Shown in pieces: positions 9,061 to 64,000 of a DNA stretch of 64,000 bases. Source of the stretch: Nitrospirota bacterium. Lineage in GTDB: Bacteria > Nitrospirota > UBA9217. The notes under the pieces were generated by a model, which ran no database searches, was not told the origin of the DNA, and worked only from the letters and a program-made list of their open reading frames with translations. The DNA is taken from assembly GCA_963818475.1 (NCBI GenBank), contig CAWFSF010000006.1, forward strand, positions 704,001 to 768,000, given 5' to 3'. Positions within the stretch are counted from its first letter, which is position 1; each line of letters starts with the position of its first letter. The translations under genes and the position numbers were made by a program.

Positions 9061-9566
9061 GAATCTTCCGGGTTTTGTGTGGGTAGTTTTTCACCCTTTA
9101 TCGATTTTCTTGCATATCCCCTTCGCAGCCTGAATGAAATTTTTGACCCGTCTAAGGCCACATCCGCTCGATCGCGCAAACTCGGCCTTTGGCCTCAGAC
9201 AGTGCGCGCTCGCCCTTGCGGGACGCTTCTTTAGGCCAAGACGGGTGCCCAAAAATTTCATAGGGCCGCTCCGTGGACATGCGGGGTTGGTTTAAATACG
9301 TTGCACCAGAAGCTTCCCATGCGAAAATCCAGGCATGCGACCGAGTCCGAGGGTGAAGCATTTCGGACTGTCTGAGCCCGAAGGGCGAGTTTCCGAAATG
9401 TACCGAGGACGACCGAGCATGCCGTAAAGGATTTTCGCCGGGTGCCTCTTTCGGTTACCTTTCTAGGGCAAGCAAGAAAGGTAACAGAAAACGCGAAAAA
9501 TGGCGCAAATACTGCTTAATAAATCATATAGGCGCTTATTCCACTCACAAGAAAGCCAGAAGATCC
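9061..9566. mobile_element. ISL3-ended structured MITE family B, copy A
   Basis: Ends GAATCTTCCGGGTTTTGTGTGGG / CCACTCACAAGAAAGCCAGAAGATCC; core homologous to 28130-28512. Confidence 0.75.
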
Positions 9567-24779: not shown

Positions 24780-25235
24780 ATGGATAAGACAGAGAAGCAG
24801 AACCTTGCTTTGGGACTTGCCGCAGGCGTTGCCGCCGCGATCATAGGCGCCGTGCTCTGGGCCTTGATCACTGTAGCGGCCGAATACCAGATAGGCTGGA
24901 TGGCGGTCGGCGTTGGCCTTCTGGTCGGGTATGCGGTGAGGACTTTCGGAAAGGGCGTTGACAGCGTGTTCGGCATATCCGGTGCAGTCATCGCGCTGCT
25001 CGGCTGTATTGCCGGAAATTTCCTGACCGTCGTCATATTGGTTTCACGCCAGGAACACCTGGGAGTGATGGCAGTGTTCTCCCGCCTGACCCCCGGCATC
25101 GCTGTCGATCTTCTGAAAGAGACCTTTCAACCGATGGACCTGCTGTTCTACGGCATCGCCGTATATGAAGCCTACAAATTCTCTTTCGAGCCGGCGGCCG
25201 GGGAAGCGCCCGTGCCGCTCAAGCAGGCCGAGTGA
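24780..25235 (+). CDS. Small membrane protein
   Basis: Four hydrophobic Gly/Ala-rich segments; DLLFYGIAVYEAYK. Confidence 0.7.
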   Translation: MDKTEKQNLALGLAAGVAAAIIGAVLWALITVAAEYQIGWMAVGVGLLVGYAVRTFGKGVDSVFGISGAVIALLGCIAGNFLTVVILVSRQEHLGVMAVFSRLTPGIAVDLLKETFQPMDLLFYGIAVYEAYKFSFEPAAGEAPVPLKQAE

Positions 25236-25287
25236 GGTTCGGAGCGAATGCTGTCAGGGTAAGGAGCCTTTCTGTGTGGGGAACCCT

Positions 25288-26139
25288 ATGAGCAGGGACG
25301 AAGAATATATGCAGCCGGAAGGGGCGGGAGAGGAAGCAGTATCAGTGCCCGAAGCCGCCTCCGAAGGACCGAACGCAAAGACGAAGCGTTCCGGCATCAT
25401 GGCAGCCCTTGCCGTGGCCGGAACGCTTCTCTTGAAATTTTTGAAGCCGCTCCTGATCGGACTGAAAGCCCTCAAGGCCGGCGCCATACTCAAGACCGGC
25501 CTGACCATGGTCTTAAGCATGTGGGCTTACGCGATGGCCTGGGGCTGGGCCTACGGCGCCGCTTTCGTGCTTCTGATCTTCGTGCACGAGATGGGCCATG
25601 TGTATGCGCTCAGGCATTTCGGGATCCGCGCAAGCGTGCCCATCTTCATTCCCTTTGTGGGCGCCTTTGTCGCCATGAAGGAGATGCCGAAGAATGTGAG
25701 CATCGAAGCATGGACGGGCATTGCAGGACCCATCGTCGGCACCGGAGGGGCCATGCTCTGCTGGTCCGCGGCCCTCTATACCGGGAGCTCCTTCTGGATG
25801 GCGGTAGCCTACACGGGATTCTTCCTCAACCTCTTCAACCTTATCCCCATCAGCCCCCTGGACGGGGGAAGGACCGTGGCCGCCATATCGCCGAAGCTCT
25901 GGGTCCTCGGCTTCATCGGTATCCTTATCCTGTTCTTTCGGTCCTTTAATCCCATCTTGTTCTTCATCCTGCTTCCCGCCGGGCGCAATGTGTATGAGCT
26001 CTGGAAAAACAGGCATGAAGCTCCGCAGGAATACTACGAGGTAGACCGCAAAACAAAGGTCCAGATCTCGCTTCTTTATTTCGGCCTCCTGGCCTTTCTG
26101 GCCCTCGCGATGTCGCTGACGCATGTGAAGAGATACTAA
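25288..26139 (+). CDS. Site-2 protease (peptidase M50)
   Basis: HEMGH, AGP, NLFNLIP.SPLDGG. Confidence 0.9.
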   Translation: MSRDEEYMQPEGAGEEAVSVPEAASEGPNAKTKRSGIMAALAVAGTLLLKFLKPLLIGLKALKAGAILKTGLTMVLSMWAYAMAWGWAYGAAFVLLIFVHEMGHVYALRHFGIRASVPIFIPFVGAFVAMKEMPKNVSIEAWTGIAGPIVGTGGAMLCWSAALYTGSSFWMAVAYTGFFLNLFNLIPISPLDGGRTVAAISPKLWVLGFIGILILFFRSFNPILFFILLPAGRNVYELWKNRHEAPQEYYEVDRKTKVQISLLYFGLLAFLALAMSLTHVKRY

Positions 26140-26261
26140 TCCAAACGAATTAAATATTATTACATCCAGGAAAGTCCCCCCTCGCCCTACCCTCTCCCCG
26201 CCGGGGAGAGGACAAAGGTGAGGGGCAAAATCAGTAACGAATCTAAATGCGTTTGTATTAG
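26136..26261. mobile_element. MITE family A, copy 3 (inverted), overlapping the M50 stop codon
   Basis: Reverse complement of 2255-2373 with both TIRs. Confidence 0.8.
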
Positions 26262-26432
26262 CTCTCCCGCTGTTGAAAAAGCTGCTGCCCGTTCTTTCTG
26301 TCGAGCAGGAGTGAACCTTTAGCGCACAGCTGCCGAGATACCCCGTTTTTAATCTTTACTTCGCGACAAGACATCTATAAACTCATATCCTATATAGTTC
26401 ACTAAAAAAACATCAGCACGTCCGGGGTATAC

Positions 26433-27527
26433 ATGGATCCCATCGATCAAAAAGTGAAGGCACTGGAAGCATTCATCGAGAAGAAGGAGCGGCTCAAGAA
26501 GACCACTCCGCTTCAGTATCTCTTCTGGGAAGCCACGCTTCGGTGCAACCTGGGATGTCTGCATTGCGGCAGTGATTGCGTGAAGAACGATGCGGCGCAG
26601 GATGCGGAGCTGGACGGAGAAGCAATAAAGCGGGAACTCCGTGCCATTGCGACGGACTATCGGCCCGAAACTGTCACCTTCGCGATCATCGGGGGAGAAC
26701 CGCTGGTACGCGAGGACATCATCGGCGTCGGGGCCTATGCGGCGGAACTCGGGTTCAACTGGGGGATCACCACGAACGGCATGCTGCTTACTGCCGACAT
26801 GGTCAAGCGGCTCAAGGACGCAAAACTCGCGACGATCTCCGTGAGCCTCGATGGGATCGAGGCAGACCATGATGCCTTGCGGAACTGCAAAGGGGCCCAC
26901 AAGGTCGTGACTGATGCCATCCGGCGTCTTCTTGCAGACCGGTTTTTCCGAACCTTCGACGTGATCTGCTGCGTGAGCAAGATCAATATCGACCATCTCG
27001 ATGCTTTTGTGGACGAAGCGGTGCGTATCGGAATTCCGGCCGTGCGCTTTACCCCGGTGTTCTCACGTGGCAGGGCCTCGAAGAACAGTTCCCTGATGCT
27101 GGATAAGTCCGATTATCTCAGGATGCTGGATTTTATCAAGCAGCAGCGGGAGAAGCAAAAGAACATACAGGTCTATCTCAGCGAAGAAGGCTATTGGGGG
27201 CCGGAATGGGAGTGCGTGATCAGGGACGAATTCCATTACTGCGCCTCGGGGATCCAGATCGGAAGCATCCTGCATGACGGCAAGGTCACAGGGTGCCCCA
27301 GCGTGTCGCGTCAATTCATCGAGGGCACGATCTTGGAGTCTGCCTTCGTCGATATCTGGAAGGGCCAATTCGGTCGGTACCGGCAGGACCGGGAAAAAAC
27401 CTTTTCACTGAAGTGCTCCGGCTGCGAGCACTGGGTCCTGTGCGAAGGCGGCGGTTTTCATCTGCTGGACCAGGAGAATACTTCGGAGAGTTTCTGCTGT
27501 CTTGAAAAAATCGGCACGAGGAGATGA
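26433..27527 (+). CDS. Radical SAM/SPASM protein maturase (rSAM-lipoprotein system/splicease-like)
   Basis: LFWEATLRCNLGCLHCGSDC (CxxxCxxC), GGEPL, SVSLDG, SPASM C.SG....SI..DG.V.GCPS and C..C.....CEGGG.H; ATGA overlap with the next gene. Confidence 0.9.
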   Translation: MDPIDQKVKALEAFIEKKERLKKTTPLQYLFWEATLRCNLGCLHCGSDCVKNDAAQDAELDGEAIKRELRAIATDYRPETVTFAIIGGEPLVREDIIGVGAYAAELGFNWGITTNGMLLTADMVKRLKDAKLATISVSLDGIEADHDALRNCKGAHKVVTDAIRRLLADRFFRTFDVICCVSKINIDHLDAFVDEAVRIGIPAVRFTPVFSRGRASKNSSLMLDKSDYLRMLDFIKQQREKQKNIQVYLSEEGYWGPEWECVIRDEFHYCASGIQIGSILHDGKVTGCPSVSRQFIEGTILESAFVDIWKGQFGRYRQDREKTFSLKCSGCEHWVLCEGGGFHLLDQENTSESFCCLEKIGTRR

Positions 27528-28054
27528 AAGCAATGGGCAGAAATGAATATTCCAGGAGAGAATTTCTGAAAACATTCGCAATGCTATCCTCTGCATCGGT
27601 CATAGGGCTGAGCTTCGGATGCGCTGAGCCACAAGACGGAGCACTCTATGGTCCGGCAGCACTCTATGGTCCAGTAGCACTCTATGGCCCACCGCCCGTG
27701 AACTTAGTTCATCCCGAGGTCACCGCGATCTACTTCATCGACGATCAATCAACGAGAATTCTTCTGCAGAATAACCAGAACGTGCCCGTCCAGGTCGTCT
27801 GCCGCATCGATTTCAGCAAGTCCATGAATACAACAATGCCGGTCACGATCAGTTTTACCGATCCCGCTGAGAATGCAGTCCCGATTTCTCAAGCATGGGC
27901 GAATGACCTGACCTTGATCGTAACGCCAACATCGCAGCTTCTGTTCAATTCAGCATATGCCTTGTCCGTAGGAAATGATGCGGAGGACATTTACGGCAAC
28001 AAGATCACGTTGACTGTGGATGCAACGGTATCGTTCAGGACCGTCAGCGCATAG
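27524..28054 (+). CDS. Tat lipoprotein with (ALYGPx)x3 repeat and SbsA/Big_5-like Ig domain
   Basis: SRREFLK, LSFGC lipobox, GALYGPAALYGPVALYGPPP; VPV....IDFSKSMN...LIVTP...L.FNS.Y.L.V...AED.YGN...FRT. Confidence 0.8.
   Translation: MKAMGRNEYSRREFLKTFAMLSSASVIGLSFGCAEPQDGALYGPAALYGPVALYGPPPVNLVHPEVTAIYFIDDQSTRILLQNNQNVPVQVVCRIDFSKSMNTTMPVTISFTDPAENAVPISQAWANDLTLIVTPTSQLLFNSAYALSVGNDAEDIYGNKITLTVDATVSFRTVSA
27641..27694 (+). repeat. 18-bp tandem repeat x3 encoding ALYGPx
   Basis: GCACTCTATGGTCCGGCA / GCACTCTATGGTCCAGTA / GCACTCTATGGCCCACCG. Confidence 0.9.
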
Positions 28055-28059
28055 TATTT

Positions 28060-28584
28060 GGGTCTTCTGGGTTTGATGTGGGCCGTTTTTATTCTGTTTG
28101 CATCCTTAAGAGGATGAGGTATGCTTTTTTGCACATCCCCTTCGCGTCCTTAATGAAATTTTTGACCTGTCTAAGGCCACATCCGCTCGACCGCGCAAAC
28201 TCGGCCTGCGGCCTCAGACAGTGCGCGTTCGCCCTTTGGGACGCTGCCTTAGGCCAAGACAGGTGCCCAAAAATTTCATAGGTCCGCTCCGGGGACGTGC
28301 GGAGTTTGGGTAAAGATTAGAATCAAAGGTTCTTGGTGTTCCCATGCGAAAATTTAGCCAGGCGACCGAGTCCGAGGGTGAAGCATTTCGGACTGTCTGA
28401 GCCCGCAGGGCGAGTTTCCGAAATGTACCGAGGACGACCGAGCCTGGCGTAAAGAATTTTCGCCGGGTGCCCTTCTTTGGGTCACCTTGCTTGGGCACGC
28501 AAGAAAGGTGACGAAAAAAGCTTGTTAAATAAAATACATCAGCACGTTTACAGTTTACCGACCCACACAAAAGTCAGAAGACCC
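28060..28584. mobile_element. ISL3-ended structured MITE family B, complete copy B
   Basis: TIRs GGGTCTTCTGGGTTTGATGTGGGCCG / CGACCCACACAAAAGTCAGAAGACCC; perfect 8-bp direct repeat TAGTATTT at 28052-28059 and 28585-28592. Confidence 0.88.
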
Positions 28585-28607
28585 TAGTATTTAAAGAGGG
28601 GGGCACG

Positions 28608-29063
28608 ATGATGCAAGATGATTGTTCGCGCAGGGATTTTCTGAAGAAGTTCGCTTTGTTATCCGCCGGGACGTTCGTGCTCGGCGCGACGACCATGGCT
28701 TGCTACGGCCCTATGGGACCGCAGCCTTCGTCTATCGCTACGGTCAGCGGCATGTACTTTCTTGATGCCTCATCGAATTTGCAGCTCCTCAGAAATAGTC
28801 AGGAAGTGCCGGTGGATACGACATTTAAAATTCACTTCTTCAATCAAATGAATACGACTGTAGACGCGACTGTCGAATTTACCGATCAGAACGCCGTTCC
28901 CTTTGGTCAGGCCTGGGACAGCGACTTCATCTTGAGCGTGGCCCCCTCATCGTATCTATTGAACGCTACGGAGTATCGGCTTATCGTGCTGGACGCTGAA
29001 AGCAAAACAGGCGAAAAAATTAACCTGGCTGGCGACGCGGAAGCGACATTCAAAACGGTGTAG
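28608..29063 (+). CDS. Second Tat lipoprotein with CYGP motif and Ig-like domain (paralog of 27524-28054)
   Basis: SRRDFLK, TMAC-YGP; aligned V..MYFLD....QLL.N.Q.VPV...I.F...MNTT...VPF.QAW..D..L.V.P...FKTV. Confidence 0.8.
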   Translation: MMQDDCSRRDFLKKFALLSAGTFVLGATTMACYGPMGPQPSSIATVSGMYFLDASSNLQLLRNSQEVPVDTTFKIHFFNQMNTTVDATVEFTDQNAVPFGQAWDSDFILSVAPSSYLLNATEYRLIVLDAESKTGEKINLAGDAEATFKTV

Positions 29064-29121
29064 CACGATGAAAACTCGAAGGTAGTCAGCAGGCAAAAAT
29101 GTGTACTGAGCCGGTAATACT

Positions 29122-29907
29122 ATGGAGGATAAAAAAATTACGGAAGCCGTGACCATTTTCAGACGAATGGCTATTGCGATCATTCTGGCGGCCCTCCTGG
29201 CCGGCTGCGCAATCGGACCAGTGACCTCAAAAGACTGGGCAGGCAAGGGGTATTCGCGTTTAAAAGCCGGCGACTACGAGGGTTCGATAGACGCCTACAG
29301 CAAATCGATAGAGCTGGATCCCAGCCACGCCGTGACGTATCAAAATCGAGGGGTCAGTTATTCCCGGTTGGGCGACCAGCAGCGGGCGCTCGCTGATTTC
29401 AAAAAGGTCTTGTCGATGAACGACCAGAAGGTGCCGCTCCGTGACACCTATCGTGAAATGGGTGTTGCCTATTACCGGATGGGCAGTATTGATGACGCCG
29501 TTGCCTCCTGGAAGAAAGGCCTGAAAAAGGCGCCCTCCGATGCCGGCGTGCTCAATAACATCGCCGTCGCCTATCTGCAGCAGAAACGGTACGGAGAGGC
29601 GGCTTCAGCCGCGCAGGAGGCGTTTGCTGCAGATCCCTCGATGCCGGAAGTCCTGAATACCATGGGCCAGGTTTCAATGGAAAAAAAGGACTATGATGCA
29701 GCCGCGAAGTATTTCATGCAGTCGATCAAACGGAATCCGAAAGATCCGTCCCAATACTGGAATGCCGCCCTGGCCTTCGAAAAGATGAAGCAATACAAGA
29801 AGGCCTTAAAATACGCGACAAAGTACTCGGAAGTGGTAACGGACGCCGCCTCCCGGGAGAGGGCATCTGCCTATATAGAAGGCCTGCAGAAGATGACGGA
29901 CAGATGA
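29122..29907 (+). CDS. TPR-repeat lipoprotein
   Basis: LLAGC lipobox; multiple TPR motifs (YSKSIELDP...YQNRG..Y). Confidence 0.85.
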   Translation: MEDKKITEAVTIFRRMAIAIILAALLAGCAIGPVTSKDWAGKGYSRLKAGDYEGSIDAYSKSIELDPSHAVTYQNRGVSYSRLGDQQRALADFKKVLSMNDQKVPLRDTYREMGVAYYRMGSIDDAVASWKKGLKKAPSDAGVLNNIAVAYLQQKRYGEAASAAQEAFAADPSMPEVLNTMGQVSMEKKDYDAAAKYFMQSIKRNPKDPSQYWNAALAFEKMKQYKKALKYATKYSEVVTDAASRERASAYIEGLQKMTDR

Positions 29908-35626: not shown

Positions 35627-36190
35627 ATGCAAAGAGCAAAAGACATGAAAGCAAAACAACGTGAAGAACTACTCAGAGCATTGAAAGCCCGTTTTGAGAA
35701 AAACATGAACCGCCATAAAGGTCTTGAATGGGCTAAAGTACAAGCAAAGCTGGAAGCTAATCCTGAAAAACTGTGGTCACTCAATGAAATGGAAAGAACC
35801 GGCGGTGAACCGGATGTTGTTGGTCATGATAAAAAGACGGGCGAATACATTTTTTATGATTGTTCAGCGGAAAGTCCTAAAGGCCGCAGAAGTGTTTGTT
35901 ACGACCGTGAAGCGCTGGAGTCAAGGAAAGAACATAAACCAGAAAATAACGCTATTGATATGGCAGCTGCCATGGGCATTGAGCTTTTAACGGAAGAACA
36001 ATATCGAGAGTTGCAGAAACTTGGAAATTTCGATACGAAAACGTCGAGCTGGGTGAAAACACCTTCTGATATTAGAAAACTCGGCGGCGCCCTCTTTGCT
36101 GATCGCCGCTACGACCATGTCTTCGTGTATCACAACGGTGCGGACTCTTACTATGGCGCCAGGGGGTTCCGTGGCTCGCTAAGGGTCTAA
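35627..36190 (+). CDS. DUF4256-family protein
   Basis: LKARFEKNM.RH, MERTGGEPDVV, DCSAESPKGRRS.CYD, YHNGA.SYY..RGFRG. Confidence 0.9.
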   Translation: MQRAKDMKAKQREELLRALKARFEKNMNRHKGLEWAKVQAKLEANPEKLWSLNEMERTGGEPDVVGHDKKTGEYIFYDCSAESPKGRRSVCYDREALESRKEHKPENNAIDMAAAMGIELLTEEQYRELQKLGNFDTKTSSWVKTPSDIRKLGGALFADRRYDHVFVYHNGADSYYGARGFRGSLRV

Positions 36191-36208
36191 ATTTTGCGCA
36201 GATAGTCG

Positions 36209-36320
36209 GTAGGGTAGAGGGGAGCGAAACGCGACGGGTTCGCCGATTGATTCCGAGAATCGAGCATCGGTATCGGCCAGCTTAAAGGCGTTGGGTTTCA
36301 CTTTGTTCTACCCAACCTAC
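36209..36320. repeat. GTAG-type REP doublet
   Basis: GTAGGGTAGAG..GCGAAAC facing GTTGGGTTTCAC..TTCTACCCAACCTAC; related fragment near 5510-5558. Confidence 0.55.
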
Positions 36321-36647
36321 CGGCTATCGTGTGGTGTAGTCAATTTACTCCTGAATCTGTTGAAGTTGCACTTCTTTGAAATATAGCATGTTGGATTCTG
36401 TATTCATTGAAGTATCTCATCGTCGTCGTTGCCAAGTCATGACATCAAGCATATATTCCGACCAAGAAACCGTGAGGCTTTACACGAAGACATAAGGTAT
36501 AGCTGTGCGGAAAAATCAAGGATGCCGAATTGAAAAAGTTTATTATTTCATAAACCGGCTCGCGATCGAGTTCAACGGTTAAATTTTGGCCGACCAAACC
36601 TAAGCGATAATAGAATTAATTTTGAAGGCATTCCAGTTTTTATTGGA

Positions 36648-37007
36648 TTGTTCAGCGCTCTTTCTCTTATCCTTTCTGTCATCTATGATTGGGGATATTT
36701 TATCGCTTTAGACATTTCTTTTGCAGAAGCACCCACGTCATTGTCGGATCATATCAAGAGCGCTTTAATTTGGGTGCCCCCTGCAGCCTTGATTATTTTT
36801 ATAGTGGCTGTTATAGAACTGACGCTTCCCCGATGGATGCTGCGGATGGCAGGACTCTTCAGCGGGGTCAGCAGGGAAGACGTGGAAATGCTGTATCAAA
36901 ATGATTCGGACTATCTCTTTGACAGCAGCAAGTTCGACAAGGCCTTTGACTTCAAGACCACAAGCTATGAAAAGGGCGTCGAAGAGACCGTGCGGTCCAT
37001 GAGATGA
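36648..37007 (+). pseudogene. Chimeric ORF: AT-rich membrane-protein fragment fused to a stranded epimerase tail
   Basis: Junction at ~36820; C-terminal TLPRWMLRMAGLFSGV...ETVRSMR matches the end of 32680-33600. Confidence 0.75.
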
Positions 37008-37479
37008 TGCCGGTTGCCGATAAACGGATGGAAATTCATGCCAGATGAGCCCAAGAACGCACCTGTCACTTCTGACAGGTGACAGCGAACAATAAATAAG
37101 TTACAATCATGCAGTAGATTGTCGATGGCACTTCTGCTTGAATTTTTCGACGCAACTTCAACAACAACGTCCCTAAATCGGTCCGGTTCGCGGCGAGTCA
37201 CCGGCACGTTGAGTCTGTAGGAAAACCCCTAAAAGGCACATTTTAGGCCCTTGATGGCAGCAACACAATTTGCCTGATGATAATAAGAATGATACTGACG
37301 GTGATTCTCGGCCCGAATGACGGGCTTTTCCTCGCTTGATGATCATCGCAAGACATCGTTGAAGTTTAATCACGTTAAGCGAAGCCTGGTGCGTTGGTGT
37401 TTGAAAAGGTACTTTTCCTACAGACTCGTTATATCGAAAAAGAAAGAAGATAAATGCCGCAGGCATCTGACCACGGATG

Positions 37480-37781
37480 TCTTATTATAAAGAACGCACA
37501 TTAAGAGGAGGTGTCTTATGAAAGTTAAGAGAAGCGCGAAGGGCCTCAAGAAGATTGGACTGGAAGATATGTATCGGCTGAACCGGCTGTCTGAGGAAAT
37601 AGACGGTAGAGTACACAAACGGCTTCCATACTTCATCGAGCAAGTGTATAATCGGAAACGACTGCATGCATCACTGGATTATGTTCCTCCGTTGAAGACG
37701 AGGCAATGCTGATAAACCAGAATAAAAATCCACCCTGTCCGATTACTCTAAGCTGACTGTCGAAACCTAGGGTGCAGTTCA
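37480..37781 (+). mobile_element. IS3-family remnant
   Basis: RLPYFIEQVYNRKRLHASLDYVPP (integrase-core C-terminus) followed by a right-end-like ...GGGTGCAGTTCA. Confidence 0.7.
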
Positions 37782-38211
37782 GTGTGGGCTTTAGGGGGCT
37801 GTTTCTACAGCTCGTAGATGGGAACAAGATGGAAAGGAGACAATTATGGTCATGTGAAGGATAGTCGACAGCGTCTTACCTTGCCTTCCATCGGAAATCT
37901 TTGCGATGGTTAGGAAGCGAAAGCTGAGAGTCCAGTTACGCGCAATACCATGCGCTACTGAAAACTCTTTGTATGTTAACCGGTCGTCAATTCCGGGAAG
38001 AGGCTGAGAACGTGCAGCGCATTAGCGGGGTAGGGCGTGCAGCAGCAATACCGTCTTCGCCACATAGATCGAGAACGCTCAGAAATTTGCGAGTCATAAG
38101 AGGGAATTCTCGCTTGACCGACTAGCTGGAACCCAGAGAAGACAACCGGGATTTCAATCAGTTTAGATTCGGTGAGAGATAAATATAGAGCGAAATTGAA
38201 TTGAAATAAAA

Positions 38212-38289
38212 CCGTAACAAGCGCATCATTCGGACCTCAAAAAGCTGTGCGCGCTCCGCTTTTGCGTCCGGTTATGCACCTCGTTAATT
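38212..38289 (+). other. Solitary integron attC-like site
   Basis: CCGTAAC-aaGCGCATCATT-CGGAC..GTCCG-GTTATGCAC-ctc-GTTAATT, immediately before an AT-rich ORF. Confidence 0.6.
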
Positions 38290-38306
38290 TTCAAGAGGAG
38301 ATGAAT

Positions 38307-39127
38307 ATGGTAGATAATTCCATAATTAATATAGGTGAGCTATCAAAGCCGGCAACTGTGTTAATCGAGAGAATTTCAGATGCTGTCGGTGGTATTTTCA
38401 AGCCATGTCAAATTAATCCGTGTTGCAAAAGCTGAAATCGAAGCGGATGCTACGTGCTGAATCTCAACTCCAAATTACAGACCTTCATCGACGTGCTCTT
38501 CATCGGTTCTTGGAAGAAGAGGCGAAAAAACAAACTAACATTGAGAAAATAACTCAAAAAGCATTACCTCACGTTGACGAGAATGCAGCACCGGACAAAA
38601 TTGAGGATGATTGGATAACAAATTTCTTTGATAAGTGTCGGCTGATTTCAGACTCTGAAATGCAACGTTTATGGTCACGCGTTCTTTCTGGTGAAGCTAA
38701 TGTGCCCGGCTCATATTCTAAAAGGACAGTCGATTTCTTATCATCATTAGACAAGAGAGATGCAGAAATTTTTACTCGATTATGTACTTTTAAAATTGAA
38801 ATCGGTGATGTAGTGCCGATGGTCTATAACTTGGAAAGTGAAATTTATTCCAGGCACGAAATAAATTTCAATTCATTAAGCCATCTTGAGAGCATAGGTT
38901 TGATTCAGTTTGATGGTATGACAAGTTTCGCACGGTCGAAACTGCCAGAAAAGATAACCGTTCTGTATTACGGTTCTCCTGCCGATCTTGAATTTCCGGG
39001 CGCTGAAAACAACCAAATGATTCTTGGAATGGTTCTGCTCACACAAATTGGCCAAGAACTCGCCCCAATTTGTAATTCCTCACCTGACCCAGGGAACTTT
39101 GGGGACGTCGTTACTTACATTGCATAA
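38307..39127 (+). CDS. DUF2806-family protein (frameshift near 38420-38450, 3' end possibly replaced)
   Basis: KPATVLIE.ISDAVG.IF.P, E..KQ.NIE.I, IEDDW..NFFDK...ISD.EMQ.LW..VL.GE. Confidence 0.75.
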
Positions 39128-39272
39128 CACTTAATGTGTGCATGGTTTGGGAAGATTGGAATCCAGGCAGCAACGCAACGTAAGTAACAACGCTATGTCA
39201 CCAAAGCGCCCCTTATTGAGCTTGTCTTGGCGCGCCTCTTAAATTAACCAATTGGCAGATCTGACCGAATGG

Positions 39273-39287
39273 GCTTACAATGTAAGC
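39273..39287. promoter_or_regulatory. Palindromic operator upstream of mazE-like gene
   Basis: Perfect 7-1-7 palindrome GCTTACA-A-TGTAAGC. Confidence 0.6.
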
Positions 39288-39312
39288 ACATGGTAAAAGG
39301 ATGGTACCTGTT

Positions 39313-39561
39313 ATGAAAACCCATTTGATTCAAGTTGGAAATTCGCGAGGCATAAGGCTGCCGAAACTTTTCATCTCACAGGCCGGATTGACCGATGAAG
39401 TCGAAATTCATATAAGAGATGGTGCAATAGTTATAGAGAACGCATCTTCGCCTCGTGAAGGCTGGGCTAAAGCAGCCAAAGCAATCCATGATCGTGCTGA
39501 AGATGTATTGCTTATGCCATCGAACCCTACCCGTTTTGACGAAAAGGATTGGAAGTGGTAA
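39313..39561 (+). CDS. mazE: AbrB/MazE-family antitoxin
   Basis: LIQVGNSRGIRLPK, VEI....G.IVI, PREGW. Confidence 0.88.
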   Translation: MKTHLIQVGNSRGIRLPKLFISQAGLTDEVEIHIRDGAIVIENASSPREGWAKAAKAIHDRAEDVLLMPSNPTRFDEKDWKW

Positions 39562-39777
39562 TGTCCGATGCCGTGCGCCGTGGCGATGTATTCCTGATCT
39601 CGCTCGATCCAGTATCCTTTCCGAATCGCATGCCGGTTTCAAGGACGTGCAGGCCATATCGTTCTGGATCAGATTCGCACAGTCGATCGCGAGCGTCTGG
39701 TTAAGAAACTCGGCAAACTCTCTGCTTCCACACTATCAAATGTTTTGGCAATTTTGCAGGAGATGTTCGCGCCCTAA
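39555..39777 (+). pseudogene. mazF: PemK/MazF toxin with internal deletion
   Basis: VRRGDVFLISLDP joined out of frame to YPFRI..IVLDQIRTVDRERLVKKLG..LQEMF; the G.E..K.RP..AP.TT segment is missing. Confidence 0.85.
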
Positions 39778-39944
39778 TTGTTTCGGCTCAGACTTGGATC
39801 TGTAGTTATTGTTCCTCCACCCCTCCATCCGTCGCCTTCTCTTTCTCTCGAAACAGCGCTCCTTTGTTTCCTTGTATGTTGATCCCCATGCGATCAGACC
39901 CTCCGATGGTATAATATATACAGGGAAGAAGGAGGCGAACGAAC

Positions 39945-40427
39945 ATGACGAAGAAACCGGCAATTACCCATAAGATCACGCCGCATCTCTGGTTCGACAA
40001 GGAGGCCAGGGAGGCGGCTGAGTTCTACACTTCGGTGTTCCCCAAGTCGAAGATCAAGAGCACAACGACGCTCAATGACACACCGTCCGGCACGGTGGAG
40101 GTCGTCACCATCGACCTCATGGGGCAGGAGTTCATGCTGCTCTCGGCCGGGCCGCTCTTCAAATTCAACGAATCGATCTCGTTCATCATCCGCTGCAAGA
40201 CCCAGAAGGAGATCGACTACTACTGGGAGAAGCTCTCTGCTGTACCGGAAGCGGAGCAGTGCGGCTGGCTCAAGGACAAGTACGGCCTGTCGTGGCAGAT
40301 CGTTCCGGCGGCCATGGACAAAATGATGAAGGACAAGAACAGGGAGCGGCTTGCCCGGGTGACCGAGGCATTCCTCAAGATGAAGAAGTTCGACATCAAG
40401 ACGCTCGAACGGGCATATAAGGGCTGA
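39945..40427 (+). CDS. VOC/PhnB-like protein (3-demethylubiquinone-9 3-methyltransferase family)
   Basis: KITPHLWFD..A.EAA.FY, FKFNESISF, EIDYYWEKL, CGWLKDKYGLSWQIVP. Confidence 0.92.
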   Translation: MTKKPAITHKITPHLWFDKEAREAAEFYTSVFPKSKIKSTTTLNDTPSGTVEVVTIDLMGQEFMLLSAGPLFKFNESISFIIRCKTQKEIDYYWEKLSAVPEAEQCGWLKDKYGLSWQIVPAAMDKMMKDKNRERLARVTEAFLKMKKFDIKTLERAYKG

Positions 40428-42262: not shown

Positions 42263-42394
42263 TTCCCCATGGCACACATGCGCTCCTTGTCACCTTTCTT
42301 GCGTGCTCTAATCCTTACCCCAACCCCGCACGTCCCTGGAGCGGACCTAACACCTAGACAAGTTAACGACCCACATTAAAGTCTGAAGAAACCC
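42263..42394. mobile_element. MITE family B, deleted remnant D
   Basis: Pieces matching 45158-45210 and 45387-45418 plus a TIR-like end GACCCACATTAAAGTCTGAAGAAACCC. Confidence 0.6.
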
Positions 42395-45157: not shown

Positions 45158-45523
45158 TTCCCCATGGCACATGCGCTCCTTGTGCTCTTTGTCACCTTTC
45201 TTGCGTGCCCAAGAAAGGTGACCCAAAGAAGGGCACCCGGCGAATATTCTTAACGCCATGCTCGGTCGTCCTCAGTACATTTCGGAAACTCGCCCTGCGG
45301 GCTCAGACAGTCCGAAATGCTTCACCCTCGGACTCGGTCGCCCGGCTAAATTTTCGCATGGGGAACTGCTGTGAGGGTCTGACTCACCCAAACCCCGCAT
45401 ATTCCCGGAGCGGCCCTATGAATTTCTTGGGCACCCGTCTTGGCCTAGGTAGCGTCCCGCAGGGCGAACGCGCATGTCTGAGGCCGCAGGCCGAGTTTGC
45501 GCGAACGAGCGGACGTGGTCTTA
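45158..45523. mobile_element. MITE family B core, inverted copy C (no TIRs seen)
   Basis: Reverse complement of 28170-28512. Confidence 0.8.
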
Positions 45524-57897: not shown

Positions 57898-58085
57898 CAC
57901 CGGAGTTGCTCATTATCCATGATTCTGCCCGGTTGATGATACGCCCTTCTCACAATGGTGGCGACGTCGTAAGCATTCCCCGTGGTACTCACTCCAGGCT
58001 GAAGGAAAAACTCCTTCAGCTTTTTTTGTGATTGCACGGAACTGACAACCTGTGTTACTGTGGCCATGTTGCTTAAAAAATGGGG

Positions 58086-58293
58086 GTAACTATTCAGGTC
58101 AAAAGCAAGGCGTCTCCCGCAGAGTCGCAGAGGCGCAGGGAAGTCGTTAAACGGGGGAAGATCAATTTTTAACCTTTCGTTTGTGAAACAAGGATTATAT
58201 CCGTTGCCATCCCCGCGGCTCAGCGTCTCTGCGCGAAAAGGCTTTCAATTTTGACTTGTTGGAGCCAAATACAAAAACGAGCTGAATAGTTAC
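58086..58293. mobile_element. 208-bp MITE-like element enclosing a nonamer palindrome
   Basis: 12-bp perfect TIR GTAACTATTCAG / CTGAATAGTTAC; internal (CGCAGAG)n / (CTCTGCG)n. Confidence 0.65.
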
Positions 58294-58320
58294 AACGGGT
58301 ATGCGCAGATTGTTCAGTAT

Positions 58321-58628
58321 TAAACGGAGGCCGGGAATATCGATGTTCAAGCCTCTATCTTGCCGTGGGGCATTCAGCGCGTCGCGATACCTTTGCCATG
58401 CTCCATACCAAGGGCATTTTTCTCGAACAGAAGCCGATCTCTGTCGGCGTGCGGATTGAGCACCCGGTGGAGATTATAAATCTCATGCGTTATGGCGACA
58501 AATACAAGGACTACTCCGCCATCGGCGCTGCCACCTATTCTCTCAATTACACGGACCGAAAAATAAAGAGGGGCGTGTATACCTTCTGCATGTGTCCCGG
58601 CGGCGAGGTGATGAACCCTTCGTCAGAA
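58321..58628 (+). pseudogene. Internal fragment of a second allele of the FAD oxidoreductase at 17340-18915
   Basis: EYRCSSLYLAVGHSA..VYTFCMCPGGEVMN alignable to 18059-18362. Confidence 0.85.
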
Positions 58629-58889
58629 GAGAACCTCCCTCAGAACATGCTGTTTGTAATATTAGTCAGGTAAAAACTGATATTCCGCTTAATGCATATT
58701 AGTCAGCATTCAAATACTAATGACATCAACCAGTTAAGTCAGGTTTTTTTCTAAAAACATTGACCATAACGACAATCCATGCTACTGTATTTCGTCCCTA
58801 GAATAACTTGTTGGAATAAAACTTGCTCCAACCGGCAATTCGAGACGGGACAAGGCCGCTCGAATATTGGAAGGGAAAGAAACAACGGA

Positions 58890-59094
58890 GATAATAATTC
58901 GATTATTCCTTTACTCCTCGCTTTCATCGCCTTTTTGGGTTGCTCCAAATTTAAAGAAGGTGAATGCATTCAAAATACCGCTGATGGAACCATCTATCGC
59001 ATTACCGCTGTCCACTTCAGTGAATACACACCTTCAAGGGTGGTTCGGTGATAAATGGGGGATTCCTGTAAGCGGCTCGTTCGATGTTATTTGA
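58890..59094 (+). pseudogene. Broken small lipoprotein gene
   Basis: LLLAFIAFLGC lipobox, frame change near 59030, no clear start. Confidence 0.4.
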
Positions 59095-59147
59095 TTCGCG
59101 TTATGTAACGGTAACGTGTCCATATAGTGAGAAGACAATTAAATAAA

Positions 59148-59498
59148 ATGATTTCTGTAAATGATGTAAAGATGATAATTGTAGCATGGGCGAAAACCCT
59201 TCCTTTTAAAGTCAAGATCCATCTTTTCGGCTCTTTTCTGAAAGGAGATAAGATTCCTTCTGATATTGACATTTCTCTTGAATTTCTTGAACCTTTCTCG
59301 GAGGTAGAACGAACACTCCTTTGGATAAAACATCATAAAAACTGGGAAACGTATCTTTCAGAAAGATTCGGAATGAAGGCCGACCTTCAACTTTATGAAG
59401 CCGACAAAAATATTCCAAAGTACCTTGCATCATCTTCTTTATTGCTATTCGATTCACGGGTATCGGAAGCCGAATACGAAATAAATAAGTGCCAATGA
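59148..59498 (+). CDS. Minimal nucleotidyltransferase (MNT-like) cassette protein
   Basis: IHLFGS..KG...SDIDI. Confidence 0.75.
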   Translation: MISVNDVKMIIVAWAKTLPFKVKIHLFGSFLKGDKIPSDIDISLEFLEPFSEVERTLLWIKHHKNWETYLSERFGMKADLQLYEADKNIPKYLASSSLLLFDSRVSEAEYEINKCQ

Positions 59499-59564
59499 TT
59501 ATGCCAAGCTCATGCCCTGCATCAAAAAGTGCATATTTAACTAGTCGCATATCCTAAAAAAATA

Positions 59565-59624
59565 TTCCAACCAGAAGGTCGAGAGAGTCGGGGCTACGCC
59601 CCGCTCCTCACCTTCCTGTTGATC
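59565..59624 (+). other. attC site
   Basis: TTCCAAC-caGAAGGTCGAG...CTCACCTTC-ct-GTTGATC with one extra base in the left arm. Confidence 0.7.
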
Positions 59625-59668
59625 CATATTTAAAAGAGAAAAATTTATTCTGAAAGAAGTAATAGCCG

Positions 59669-60487
59669 ATGACCTTGACAAATGTAAGAAACTACGTAGT
59701 TGAACATTGGCCCATCTTGGTTACCTTTGGTGTTGGGATATCCGGCCTTATAGCCTTCCTAAGGAATCTTTACCAAATCAAAAATCTCCGACTTCAAAAT
59801 AAGAAGCTCACGAATGATAACCTCAACGATGAATCTACGATAAGCAGTGACGAGGAGCGGCCACCCCGCTATAAAAATACTCTTTCTGAGTTAGATATCT
59901 TGTACACTGATGTTGCTCGAAACAGCCTAACATTGTTGCCGCTTACAAAAAATCAATTTCTTAATCTGCTATCGATTGAGTTAAAAGCCACCCGTTGTTT
60001 TCTCAAATAGATTATGAGTCACTCCCTTTACCGTTAAAAGGAGGATACTTTGCGATTGTAACGAAAGCTAGCAATAAAATTACGTTGGAAACGATTTCAA
60101 AAAGTGCCGTTAAAAGAGAGCTATTTTGATGCTTGGTCGCAATTGTCGCAGTTATATTTTCAAGCTTACAGATTACCTTTTCGATCTAATCACAACATAC
60201 TGAGCAACGAGAACGAATTCAAGAGATCTTCTAAATTACTAAACCACCTTATTGTCTCTGCACAAAAATATATTAATCAGACAAGGGTGATAGATGATAA
60301 AAACGTGCGTATAGCCTGCCATGACTTAAAAACACGAGCGGCCGCTGCAAGCTTAAAAGCAGAATTCGAATATTTAAAATATATGGATTCGATGGATTCC
60401 TCTTTGCTAGGCAGTATCGCTGTTCAGATGGATATAATAGTTTCCTCTATACACAAAATTCTTGTTGAGTACAGCGTGCCGAAATGA
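59669..60487 (+). CDS. AT-rich hypothetical cassette gene, split into two ORFs (59669-60010, 60104-60487)
   Basis: N-terminal TM; starts 44 bp after attC; probably one interrupted gene. Confidence 0.45.
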
Positions 60488-60554
60488 TGCTCTTGTTGTG
60501 AAGCAGTTAGCATAATGGCAAATACTAATTCATGCAGTAGCATCAAAACGCGAA

Positions 60555-60986
60555 ATGGGTAAGCCAAAAAAAAGCATTTTGCTGGTTGATGACGAAGAGT
60601 CTATGTGTGATCTGATTAAAGCTTTTCTAGATAGCGATAGTCAAAGCGTTACAGTTGCGCATAATGGTGATGAAGCTCTTACTCTTTTTAAGAAACAATC
60701 ATTCGACCTAGTGATAACTGATGTTAGAATGCCAGGCATGGACGGAATTCAGCTGCTCGCTCAAATTAAAAAAATTGACTCGAAAATTGATGTGTTCATG
60801 CTTACTGCTTTTGGCGACATTAAAACGTACCAAGAAGCGATAAGCTTGGGGGCAGCAGAATACATTAATAAGCCAACAACTATAAATGAGATCAAGAGTC
60901 TTGTGCAAAATTATCTTAGTAGTTCAAGAAGTGCCTATATATCTCGGATAAAATCAAAAATTATTCGGTTTTGGCTTAAATTATGA
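60555..60986 (+). CDS. Response regulator receiver protein (cassette)
   Basis: ILLVDDE, ITDVRMPGMDG, MLTAFG, YINKP; AT-rich codon usage. Confidence 0.9.
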   Translation: MGKPKKSILLVDDEESMCDLIKAFLDSDSQSVTVAHNGDEALTLFKKQSFDLVITDVRMPGMDGIQLLAQIKKIDSKIDVFMLTAFGDIKTYQEAISLGAAEYINKPTTINEIKSLVQNYLSSSRSAYISRIKSKIIRFWLKL

Positions 60987-61018
60987 CTGTGTAATGAAAG
61001 TTTTATCATGCCATCTGA

Positions 61019-61078
61019 TTTTAACAGGCGCGTCCACATCGCCTCGCCAATAAGCGGCGAGTGACGCGCGTGTTAAAT
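61019..61078 (+). other. attC site (best conserved)
   Basis: TTTTAAC-agGCGCGTCCAC..GTGACGCGC-gt-GTTAAAT; complementary R boxes, extrahelical C. Confidence 0.85.
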
Positions 61079-61094
61079 GTCTAGGAGATACAAT

Positions 61095-61463
61095 ATGGAA
61101 GACAAGCTCCTAATAGCAATTGCAGGTGGATTTATTGGTGGTGTCCTTGGGGTAATTGGTACAATTGTCAGTTCTTATTTTGGCCCTAGAAAATTAGAAG
61201 AATGGCGAGAGAAAAGAAAAGCCGAAAAATGGGATGGACCAAGGAAACGTCTTCTGCTTAACATGTTGAATGGCCCGACCATGCAACTGCGGTCAATTGA
61301 AACTCTTTGCAGAGCTTCTGGTACCGAACCAGAAGAATGTCGGCGTCTGCTAATAGAAATTCAAGCAAGAGGTATCCGTCTTAAAGGAAATAGAGAAGGT
61401 TGGGTATTAATAAAAAATAGGCCGCTTGAACAATTAACTGAAGATGAAGAAGCTGCCATTTAA
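61095..61463 (+). CDS. Hypothetical membrane-anchored cassette protein
   Basis: RBS aggaga right after attC; stop TAA lies inside the next ATTTAAC box. Confidence 0.75.
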   Translation: MEDKLLIAIAGGFIGGVLGVIGTIVSSYFGPRKLEEWREKRKAEKWDGPRKRLLLNMLNGPTMQLRSIETLCRASGTEPEECRRLLIEIQARGIRLKGNREGWVLIKNRPLEQLTEDEEAAI

Positions 61464-61517
61464 CAATCGGGTCGAGGCCGACGCGCAAGAAACGCGCGTC
61501 TCACCCGCATGCTGTTC
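61458..61517 (+). other. attC site with degenerate R' box
   Basis: ATTTAAC-aatCGGGTCGAG...CTCACCCG-cat-GCT (GTT expected). Confidence 0.7.
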
Positions 61518-61591
61518 CAGCGGTTGGGAAGCGCCGCTGGAATGCCGGCGATAACTCGCTAATTGCCTTGAAACGTGGCTGAGAAACGCCG

Positions 61592-61655
61592 CAGGAACCA
61601 GGCAATCAACATCGACGCCCGCTGCGCGGGCAGCGAGTTATCGCCGGCATTATGT
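61592..61655 (+). other. Degenerate attC site
   Basis: AAC-caGGCAATCAAC..GCCCGC/GCGGGC..GTTATCGCC-ggc-ATTATGT. Confidence 0.5.
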
Positions 61656-61732
61656 GTTCTAGAAATGATGAGATTCGATCGGGAGCTGACAATGGATTTT
61701 CGCTCTGATCCCATACGTATATAGAGAGTGCA

Positions 61733-62624
61733 ATGAAGTCAGGTTATATATATGTTTTGGTGCACCCGTCCGATCCTGACCTTTACAAGATTGGAATAAC
61801 AATCCGTAAACCCGAACAGCGATTGGCTCAGCACAATAGCGATTACACCCAAATAGCAGGCCATATTGTTAAAGAAACTGGTCAGAAATGGGAATTGAAG
61901 GAATACCATGCCGTCCCTGATCCTTATTGGGCCGAAAGGGTCTTTTGGGGGAACAACACCTTTCGCAGATGTCCCGTATCGATATGGAGTTGAAGTTGAA
62001 AGGATGGCCTGGGATCAAGTACAGCTAGGACTAGATGCAGCAAAGAAAGCGGGTGTCCTGCCAGGACCAGATCCTTTGCCGGATCATGTGTATGCCTATA
62101 CAGCATCGATCAAAAAACGACTGGAAGGCCGTGGCATCACCCTTTTAGGTTACGTGCGAAGTATTATAAGTGGAAAGGCTAACTTTCGATGCAGCAATGG
62201 CCACGAATGGCGGACGACACCCAAGCATGTGGGAGAAGGTCAAGGCTGTCCTGAGTGCGGGATCGGTGAACAAGATCCAGAAGCAATCAGGCAAAGGATT
62301 AAGGCAGGCGTAATATGTCTATTAACGCACCCTGACAAGCCAGGATTTGTAAGGATTGGGCTGGGTTACGGCACACTCGAAGAGGTTTGCAGAGAAAGTC
62401 CTTGGGGCGACTGGGAGGTGCATCGCAATCGAAATGTCGAGGAAGTCGCTTTAGCTGAATCACTAATCTGGGAATTGCTGGGTGAACTCCTACCCCATGG
62501 TAGCGAACCAATCAAAAAGGATTTGAATGAAGCAGAGGATGCCTTCCGCAAATTGATTTACGCGATGCAAGAAGAGATTGCTTTTGAGGAGAGAAGAAAA
62601 GAGGACACTCATAAGACTGACTGA
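61733..62624 (+). CDS. GIY-YIG/T5orf172-domain protein with Zn-ribbon (frameshift near 61950)
   Basis: GYIYVL.....LYKIG.T...PEQR..Q; C.NGHEW......G.GCPEC; second degenerate G.I.LL....PGFVRIG. Confidence 0.75.
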
Positions 62625-62646
62625 ACATAATGTAATGGGAAAAAAC

Positions 62647-62706
62647 ACATAGCAAGCCAACCCAGGCGACGCCAAAGATCTGCACGCCTGGTTTCATTCG
62701 TTAGCA
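62647..62706 (+). other. Degenerate attC site
   Basis: ACATAGC..AACCCAGGCG..CGCCTGGTT..GTTAGCA, 28 bp before the next ATG. Confidence 0.55.
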
Positions 62707-62734
62707 TGCACTACTATATAGGTACAGAGAATCC

Positions 62735-63646: not shown

Positions 63647-63684
63647 CGGTCGAGACGAGCAAGATGATTCCTTAATGTATTATG

Positions 63685-63739
63685 TGCCAACAATCGTTCC
63701 ACGCCGACCGCTTCGCGGCATGTGAACTCATCGTTCAAA
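63685..63739 (+). other. attC site
   Basis: TGCCAAC-aatcGTTCCAC-gccgaccgcttcgcggcat-GTGAAC-tcatc-GTTCAAA. Confidence 0.7.
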
Positions 63740-64000
63740 TGCAAGTTTCAACCGGTAATCGTTAGTTCTTCTGACTAATCGTAACCCACAGTTGCACGTG
63801 TAATCAACATATGATACCGCTACCCGATGGTAGCGGTTGATAAGCATTTTTTTAAGCGAGGCATAGATCCATGAAACAGAGATCTATGCTTTTTTTGTGC
63901 ATTTTTTCTTGACAAAGACGGTTCATTGACTTAAAGTTAAACAGTTGTTTTATAATAGTGGAGGGTTGATGTTATGCGTAACATGCGGTTATTTATAGGT

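Follow-up and report, generated by a model that had tools for sequence, protein, structure and literature searches.

What does a radical S-adenosylmethionine (SAM) enzyme with a SPASM domain do beside two proteins that each carry a twin-arginine signal and a Tyr-Gly-Pro motif just past a putative lipobox cysteine? This question is raised by a three-gene cassette at positions 26433-29063 of a 64,000-nucleotide stretch from a Nitrospirota bacterium (assembly GCA_963818475.1, contig CAWFSF010000006.1, positions 704,001 to 768,000), hereafter called the window. We found that the association of the motif with the enzyme is, on the sequence evidence, real and far from chance, and that the x-Y-G-(x)-P motif is probably the enzyme's target. 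A full splicease-type reaction, in which tyramine would be excised, is our leading though unproven reading of the chemistry, and we put its chances at about even. More tentatively, and with somewhat less than even odds, we propose that export signal peptides (Tat signals here, signal peptides of other kinds in the core family) double as leaders of the kind found in peptides that are made by ribosomes and modified after translation (RiPPs), with a splicease-like enzyme installing alpha-keto-beta-amino acids at the mature lipoprotein N-terminus.

The enzyme, its two partners and the Tyr-Gly motif

Three co-directional open reading frames (ORFs) make up the cassette. Its features, in window coordinates, are as follows.

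26433-27527, plus strand: radical SAM/SPASM maturase, 364 aa, an outlying TIGR04133-like family member (ORF listing, hidden Markov models (HMMs), tree)
26442-26495, plus strand: N-terminal helix of the enzyme, about residues 4-21, modelled dock for the partner signal-peptide helix
27524-28054, plus strand: partner protein 1, putative lipoprotein, 176 aa, or 173 aa with a start at 27533 (ORF listing, Pfam, homologue alignment)
27551-27571, plus strand: twin-arginine motif SRREFLK of partner 1 (translation)
27620-27622, plus strand: Cys33 of partner 1, putative lipobox Cys in a non-canonical LSFGC (translation, homologue alignment)
27641-27694, plus strand: three tandem ALYGPx units of 18 bp each, putative modification sites (Tandem Repeats Finder, TRF)
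27770-28042, plus strand: Big_5 immunoglobulin (Ig)-like domain of partner 1 (Pfam, residues 83-173)
28608-29063, plus strand: partner protein 2, putative lipoprotein, 151 aa (ORF listing, similarity to protein 1, homologues, model)
28626-28646, plus strand: twin-arginine motif SRRDFLK of partner 2 (translation; weak TAT HMM matches)
28701-28712, plus strand: Cys32-Tyr33-Gly34-Pro35 of partner 2, the motif directly behind the lipobox Cys (alignment, complex model)
28740-29057, plus strand: Ig-like beta-sandwich domain of partner 2 (predicted model, strands 45-150)

A preliminary description of this locus had the enzyme gene coupled by ATGA to a twin-arginine lipoprotein. The coordinates, the Pfam matches and the overlap itself agree: the enzyme stop codon TGA (27525-27527) overlaps the ATG at 27524-27526. 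An alternative in-frame ATG of protein 1 at 27533 (Met4) has GGAG 9 nt upstream, and in the alignment this start agrees better with the N-termini of homologues than the one at 27524. The two genes therefore either overlap by 4 nt or lie 5 nt apart, and by their arrangement they are tightly coupled whichever start is used. The triplicated ALYGPx (18 bp x3) that had been reported between Cys33 and a Big_5 Ig domain was also recovered. Protein 1 runs from SRREFLK through a hydrophobic stretch to LSFGC with Cys33, three ALYGPx units and a Big_5 domain (36.7 bits against a Pfam cut-off of 23.6), and the units are encoded by an 18-bp tandem repeat (27640-27691, 2.9 copies, 91% matches). The downstream paralogue does keep YGP, as had been stated: protein 2 is 41% identical to protein 1 (E 2e-35) and reads SRRDFLK...TTMAC followed directly by YGP.

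Pfam gave no match of its own for protein 2, and PF13205 (Big_5) is present in 17 of 19 of its database homologues. In the AlphaFold model of protein 2 (mean predicted local distance difference test, pLDDT, 83.5), residues 1-40 are disordered except for a helix at 9-18, and a confident beta-sandwich (pLDDT >90) spans residues 45-150, with a fold akin to CopC 6nfs (E 4e-5, TM 0.75 on the target), SbsC and the Ig domains of L,D-transpeptidases. By the homologues' PF13205 matches and the modelled fold, the domain is Ig-like and of the Big_5 type. Both partners have an S/T-R-R-x-F-L-K motif before the hydrophobic stretch, and the genome encodes TatC (187.7 bits, cut-off 132.7). Matches of protein 2 to HMMs for twin-arginine translocation (Tat) signals are weak (TIGR02811, 19.5 bits; TIGR01409, 13.6 bits with a cut-off of 16.7). 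A relaxed lipobox pattern is in use for calling putative lipidation, and the homologues show canonical LSGC, LTGC and LAAC in the lipobox column of a 30-row alignment; we infer lipidation of both partners because of this pattern and these canonical boxes. Across the 4.66-Mb genome, the combination of Tat motif, Cys and YGxP matches only the two cassette genes and one sequence that is not a signal peptide. An ORF with a signal-peptide-like start ending in LVAC-FYGP lies on the minus strand of the window's contig (C6, offset 1373788), outside the window and away from the enzyme.

The motif is conserved among close relatives of the cassette. Two twin-arginine proteins again come after the enzyme at each of three orthologous Nitrospirota loci, with YGP just past the Cys in 6/6 (LAC-YGPPP, AGC...AAYGPAALYGP, TAC-YGPMG, IACGE-YGP, SGCA-YGP and TGC...SSYGPPP); with the window added, plain ORF listings give YG(P) past the Cys in 8/8 partner ORFs. 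A similarity search with protein 2 returned 19 more proteins (45-76% identity), and YG follows the Cys in 19/19. C32, Y33 and G34 never vary in the partner alignment and 28 of its 30 rows have P35, while no other position between signal peptide and Ig domain is conserved. Since 9 of the 30 rows had been selected by a script requiring YG, the motif-unbiased counts are those for the 19 homologues and the eight ORFs.

For the wider family, we used a detector that demands a signal-peptide-like N-terminus followed by YGx0-1P. It matched on the enzyme strand within 3 kb at 62 of 82 loci, a few of these being clear false positives (distant, long, cytoplasmic-looking ORFs), and directly adjacent to the enzyme at 54 of 82. 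As a rough control, a looser motif pattern had 23 matches in the 36,660 frames of the whole genome, which corresponds to about 0.3 expected for 82 neighbourhoods. The conservation of YG in homologous neighbours, which the preliminary description had made a check of its proposal, is thus borne out in the ORFs, the homologues and the adjacent partners. Across the 57 adjacent partners, Tyr is preceded by E in 15, M in 12, C in 11, K in 6, A in 5, V in 5, L in 2 and H in 1, a variability that fits the prediction for an x-Y-G site, and Pro stands at +3 in 51. Tandem copies of the motif are also found elsewhere in the family, including short proteins with little else.

The enzyme itself has Pfam Radical_SAM (67.9 bits) and SPASM (23.5 bits) domains, the cluster motif C38-x3-C42-x2-C45, and invariant cysteines in the alignment at positions 38, 42, 45, 270, 288, 328, 331, 337 and 355. 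Solved structures match it only as a generic SPASM protein (GDGT-MAS 7tol, 2e-10; PqqE 6c8v, 4e-10). Its best NCBIfam match is TIGR04133, at 290.2 bits over residues 7-359 on model positions 3-348 of 350, below the cut-off of 425. TIGR04133 is the best family for 30/30 aligned family enzymes. Orthologues (66-73% identity) are present in only 3 of 40 related genomes, where the next-best match is 33% identical. Genome contigs yielded 578 relatives on scanning, and the best 80 were retained. Among these, Nitrospirota enzymes are 71-73% identical to the window enzyme, those of Sulfurimonadaceae and Campylobacteraceae 59-62%, and those of Alpha- and Betaproteobacteria 55-59%; below 55%, identity drops to 34-39%, in mostly Bacteroidales together with Clostridia, Fibrobacter, Treponema and Polyangia. 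The enzymes at 34-39% are the true TIGR04133 members, and core members from Bacteroidales, Fibrobacter and Treponema score 459-577 bits; the closer clade scores about 300 bits (300-304 bits for the Tat-clade enzymes of loci L025 and L027). Many of the relatives come from Bacteroidales-titled loci of rumen, feces and gut samples. The two partners had no match to TIGR04134 (cut-off 39.8 bits) at E <= 0.1, and the best match in the genome, at another locus, scored 13.3 bits. The resemblance to the TIGR04133/TIGR04134 pair claimed earlier therefore stands as a best full-length match and as a shared clade, and falls short in the score (290 against 425) and in the partners, which are not TIGR04134 proteins. 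Judged by sequence, the cassette is best filed as a Tat-dependent variant of this enzyme-lipoprotein pair.

The domain behind the motif differs by lineage. It is a TIGR04134/CarboxypepD_reg-like domain in Bacteroidales (110-116 bits), Clostridia (52) and Treponema (28, below cut-off), Big_5 in the window's clade, and Pal/OmpA in an alphaproteobacterium (L027:5073-5588; TIGR02802 142 bits with a cut-off of 125, Pfam OmpA 78.7 bits); in some loci only a tail of 65-90 aa follows. Twin-arginine motifs are confined to loci L003-L030, and the partners of core TIGR04133 enzymes (loci L034-L101) have none, so Tat routing is no general requirement of the system. The Tat routing that the preliminary description had proposed thus fits the twin-arginine motifs and TatC found here, and does not extend to the core of the family. 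The Cys is absent from some partners (L028, L029, L060 and L065). From this distribution, the constant unit appears to be a signal peptide, usually a lipobox Cys, and x-Y-G-x-P, and it is with this unit that the enzyme travels; the domain behind the motif appears to be exchangeable, with the motif going with the enzyme rather than with the partner domain.

Two groups of partners deserve description in their own right. In Alphaproteobacteria (L027:5073-5588 and L027:5602-6078, also L029 and L030), Tat-signal partners end in a C-terminal Pal/OmpA domain, making them peptidoglycan-binding lipoproteins that carry YG(x)P. In the Bacteroidales loci L093, L096 and L099, very short partners of 65-73 aa (L096 also has one of 128 aa) read QAC-YG[TASV]P followed by an acidic tail, and may represent a peptide-like subtype; each of these loci has an ATP-binding cassette (ABC)-transporter-like ATPase gene downstream of the enzyme.

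Modelled docking, kinship and the proposed chemistry at the motif

How might one enzyme recognize such varied partners? We propose that the cytoplasmic radical SAM/SPASM enzyme takes hold of each precursor by its twin-arginine signal peptide, before this is cleaved off and in the fashion of a maturase binding a RiPP leader, the signal-peptide helix resting on the enzyme's N-terminal helix and SPASM region. The invariant x-Y-G-P motif, 0 to ~20 residues past the lipobox Cys, would be threaded into the barrel and modified before export, at one site in protein 2 and at up to three in protein 1. Tat export, cleavage and probable lipidation would then yield a membrane-tethered Ig-domain protein with a chemically altered linker. 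This order of events is part of the proposal, and any downstream role, such as protease trapping, linker protection or covalent capture, is speculative.

We modelled the enzyme with partner 2, SAM and three 4Fe-4S clusters, using custom alignments of both proteins. The interface score ipSAE was 0.81, 0.84 and 0.80 in three runs, and the best of three controls reached 0.01. The mark we used was reached by 58 of 80 solved complexes and by 2 of 110 mismatched pairs in a calibration that covered neither custom alignments nor riding ligands. Partner pLDDT was 76 or higher, and 79% or more of the contacts were concordant between runs. Partner residues 7-9 and 11-39 form the interface. Within it, the Tat-motif helix (F11, L12, F15, A16) packs on enzyme residues 7-12, 256-257 and 332-336, with residues 7-12 touching partner residues 12-16; enzyme residues A10, L11, E12, A13, F14 and I15 are invariant in four orthologues. 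G34 and P35 of partner 2 contact enzyme residues 31, 84, 111-113 and 134-136, which probably line the barrel because they flank C38/C42/C45 and the GGEP motif (87-90). The model supports binding of the partner by the enzyme and makes the signal peptide the likely recognition element.

The kinship of the enzyme was examined in a careful IQ-TREE phylogeny of 63 rows: 30 TIGR04133-like enzymes, 8 of 20 TIGR04103 enzymes, 10 cyanobacterial relatives below the TIGR04103 cut-off, 12 of 19 Nitrospirota paralogues, and a single sequence for each of anSME, PqqE and SCIFF maturase. Redundant rows and the short paralogue fragments L253-L255 were left out; the paralogues include AhbD, AhbC/NirJ1-like, NirJ2-like and GeoRSP types (nine were typed, and L006 and L019 are also weaker MftC or WgkB matches). 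The window enzyme falls with core members in a TIGR04133-like clade of 30 rows (100/100). A clade of 49 rows (ultrafast bootstrap (UFBoot) 100, SH-aLRT 94) joins these 30 with the eight TIGR04103 enzymes, the 10 cyanobacterial relatives and one Nitrospirota paralogue. In the best tree, with which a quick tree is concordant, the TIGR04133-like clade is sister to the TIGR04103 group and apart from heme-type SPASM enzymes, anSME, PqqE and SCIFF maturase. A Tat clade of 14 rows from Nitrospirota, Campylobacterota, Alpha- and Betaproteobacteria is separate (100/100). HMM cross-scores accord with the tree in a weak way: TIGR04103 is the second-best family for 3 of 8 TIGR04133-like enzymes and among the top six for 8/8, and TIGR04133 is third-best for 2 of 3 TIGR04103-like proteins and absent for nine other SPASM paralogues at E <= 1e-40.

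A TIGR04103 search of 401 cyanobacterial genomes gave a match over the cut-off in 21, from which 20 loci were taken. Nif11-type precursors lie beside 17 of the 20 (29 precursors with 44 YG sites, mostly LYGV/MYGV), and from the family name and these Nif11/XYG neighbours the TIGR04103 enzymes are probably the PlpX family. Beside three cyanobacterial TIGR04103-like enzymes, YG.P occurs at 1/1, 4/4 and 5/5 YG sites, among them four xYGxP sites at L265:2196-2819 and five KYGLP sites at L267:636-1241. These sites indicate that the x-Y-G-x-P theme, even in a lipobox-like form, is shared with the splicease side of the tree. One splice tag of PlpXY also reads ...PLYGLPI (PMC10533398). At L266:2543-2875, a 110-aa cyanobacterial protein encoded directly upstream of a TIGR04103-like radical SAM enzyme (442 bits) has a signal-peptide-like stretch ending in MTLSAC-YGTPPP and a Pro/Ser-rich tail, and by its sequence looks like a lipoprotein-type substrate on that side of the tree. 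A second radical SAM/SPASM enzyme from the same genus as the window's genome (L263:3355-4494; TIGR04103 191, TIGR03913 161, TIGR04133 160 bits) also falls on the splicease side; it has no evident YG neighbour within ~3.5 kb, and a search with the window enzyme as query found no orthologue of it in the window's genome.

Several results weigh against splicease-type modification of exported lipoproteins, as does the scope of the docking calibration. The enzyme lies below the curated cut-off of every family, TIGR04133 included. It scores 105.1 bits for TIGR04103 (cut-off 725) and 91 for TIGR03913 (cut-off 591.75), far enough under both to place it outside the named splicease families, and the heme-type families AhbD (122 bits) and NirJ2 (111) score about the same as TIGR04103, followed by MftC (100), QhpD (72), PqqE (67.5) and anSME (64). 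Approximately unbiased (AU) tests reject neither a grouping of the family with heme-type enzymes (p 0.137) nor one with anSME, PqqE and SCIFF maturase (p 0.14), and the tree samples peptide maturases thinly, with one sequence for each of the latter three and no MftC, QhpD or over-cut-off TIGR03913 protein. Of the comparisons suggested in the preliminary description, the HMM search thus returned TIGR04133 as the best of the three named families with all three below cut-off, and the tree grouped the enzyme with the TIGR04103 clade, apart from heme- and PQQ-type enzymes, with alternatives left standing. Neither these two comparisons nor the neighbourhood survey refuted the proposal.

The substrate side has its own difficulties. 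At the 44 cyanobacterial Nif11-type sites, L, M or I precedes Tyr in 40 and Pro stands at +3 in only 7; TIGR04133-like sites often have E, K or C before Tyr, so the two sets of sites are similar, not identical. Both lipoboxes of the cassette, LSFGC and TTMAC, lack the canonical Leu at -3, and lipidation stays putative. The presence of Y and G in 57/57 adjacent partners is by construction, because the detector demands them. Twenty of the 82 loci gave no detector match. One of them (L003) was missed through opposite orientation only and has two partners, and six have an upstream flank under 700 bp. Motif proteins missed by the signal-peptide filter include TKYGVP repeats (L077, L095), HGCVYGPPPW (L050, L061) and a related short ORF with VYGPPP (L088). 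At L036, L062, L076 and L078 there is no convincing motif partner.

Could the same architecture serve another local radical chemistry, such as epimerization, C-beta oxidation, dehydrogenation or a short-range cross-link to Cys or Pro? The evidence for the motif as target would apply equally, the enzyme is outside the proven splicease families with its placement left open by the AU tests, and other Tyr-directed SPASM families (MftC at 100 bits, PqqE at 67.5) score alike. Yet only Y, G and a nearby P are common to all partner types, which leaves no conserved distant cross-link partner, and the Cys is missing in the four partners named above. To our knowledge, spliceases are the only enzymes for which a strict Y-G behind a variable residue is described, and the best tree together with the shared xYGxP neighbours points to the splicease clade. 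We regard non-splicing chemistry at the motif as fairly unlikely.

Two further explanations concern the partners more than the reaction. If YG(x)P were a structural, sorting or processing element of the lipoprotein N-terminus, the enzyme could act elsewhere and gene linkage would reflect a shared function; the motif does coincide in position with lipoprotein sorting signals, and heme-type SPASM families score close to TIGR04103. Such an element would hardly be expected to follow the enzyme across partners with Ig, Pal/OmpA, CarboxypepD_reg-like or no domain, to recur in tandem in short proteins with little else, or to occur in combination with Tat motif and Cys only beside the enzyme in this genome, and the complex model places G34/P35 in the barrel (0.81 against 0.01 for controls). 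We consider this explanation very improbable. It is also quite improbable, if a little less so, that the partners are ordinary Tat-exported Ig proteins cleaved by signal peptidase I, with the Cys as first mature residue or as a ligand of an auxiliary cluster. Leu at -3 is missing in TTMAC and LSFGC, a signal peptidase I site could equally well read T-x-A or S-x-G, and some family partners have no Cys; homologues, however, have canonical LSGC, LTGC or LAAC at the same column, the core TIGR04134 partner is curated as a putative lipoprotein, and the alphaproteobacterial partner scores as Pal, a lipoprotein. This last alternative touches anchoring only and is compatible with modification of the motif by the enzyme.

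Surrounding DNA

Beyond the cassette, no conserved gene was seen in the four Nitrospirota loci (the window and the three orthologous ones). The two lipoprotein genes are separated by a 553-bp gap, which contains a dispersed repeat copy and no gene.

28125-28515, no strand assigned: dispersed repeat copy, ~400 bp, outside the system (genome matches)

This repeat has 21 more genome matches (80-97% identity) on contigs C1, C2, C3, C5 and C6; within the window the same ~400-bp non-coding repeat is also found at ~9106-9491 and 45188-45523, with a fragment at 42307-42349. A search of Rfam over 25900-29400 gave nothing credible (a single match at E 0.39) and none at the repeat, and scans for promoters and terminators gave signals at shuffle level. 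Among public sequencing runs no RNA dataset was listed as carrying the locus, and DNA-word shares were small (<=0.12). Upstream of the cassette, the gene at 25165-26139 (plus strand) has HEMGH and LDGG motifs in its translation and resembles a site-2/M50 membrane metalloprotease; the three orthologous loci do not have it next to the cassette. G+C content is lower (0.42-0.46) in window positions 58001-64000 and 36001-40000 than elsewhere (~0.50-0.60).

Comparison with known systems

What does this locus add to existing knowledge? TIGR04133 and TIGR04134 are curated in NCBIfam as a radical SAM enzyme and a putative lipoprotein with no assigned function, and our literature search found no paper on the pair. 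Reportedly, Scott et al. (2022, Chem) surveyed 3418 radical SAM-SPASM candidates from 189 genera, with 27 confirmed pairs and 939 predicted systems, and this splicease survey may already list the TIGR04133-like family. Novelty is limited, since NCBI curates the gene pair and the 2022 survey may predict it already. The locus adds four points: an invariant x-Y-G-x-P module proposed as the likely target of TIGR04133-like enzymes; a signal peptide modelled as leader; a first, unproven link to spliceases; and a clade dependent on Tat whose module is joined to Ig or Pal domains. Loci with the enzyme/partner pair bear the titles Nitrospirota, Campylobacterota, Alpha- and Betaproteobacteria, Clostridia, Treponema, Fibrobacter and, many of them, Bacteroidales. 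The one mention of TIGR04134 that was found, in PMC11611037, gives the number to a type IX secretion system type B C-terminal domain, apparently by mistake. No connection of spliceases with lipoproteins or signal peptides was found in the literature searched, including the accessible part of PMC10885120.

In the TIGR04133/TIGR04134 pair, as in the cassette, the enzyme has a secreted protein or lipoprotein next to it whose x-Y-G-x-P comes shortly behind the signal peptide. The two differ in that the partners here are downstream of the enzyme, whereas they are upstream in the known pair, and have twin-arginine signals and Big_5 rather than CarboxypepD_reg-like domains.

SPASM enzymes that modify whole proteins before export are known in anSME and QhpD, which resemble the proposed system in being cytoplasmic radical SAM/SPASM enzymes acting on a periplasm-bound protein. 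Motif and chemistry differ, and anSME, represented by one sequence, is outside the enzyme's clade in the tree.

Spliceases (PlpX/PcpX type I, RhaX type II; TIGR04103) share more: radical SAM and SPASM domains and, in a neighbouring precursor, one or more x-Y-G sites with variable x that can be repeated. According to the accessible parts of the source papers, spliceases act at XYG, binary types need no Y protein, as would be the case here, and the leader helix docks on the enzyme (PMC11414181); the Y protein is lacking in types other than cyanobacterial type I, and the ketoamide is required for protease inhibition (PMC11414181, PMC11626197, PMC9811515), ketoamides being the protease-trapping groups of known spliceotides (PMC11626197). 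In contrast to spliceases, whose substrates have Nif11/NHLP leader peptides, the substrate here would be a folded exported lipoprotein with a Tat signal, and Tyr is frequently preceded by E, K or C in place of L, M or I. The AlphaFold splicease models of Richter et al., as given in the accessible part of that article, show the helix of a leader or Y protein lying on the enzyme, with XYG at the active centre (PMC11414181); our modelled complex likewise has a substrate helix on the enzyme and YG in the predicted active site. If the chemistry is splicing, cells would make ketoamide-bearing envelope proteins, C-Y-G forms would be modified on the lipidated Cys itself, and the products would be membrane-anchored electrophilic warheads. 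The orphan TIGR04133/TIGR04134 pair would then gain a chemistry, and the spliceotides would gain a new substrate class, folded exported proteins.

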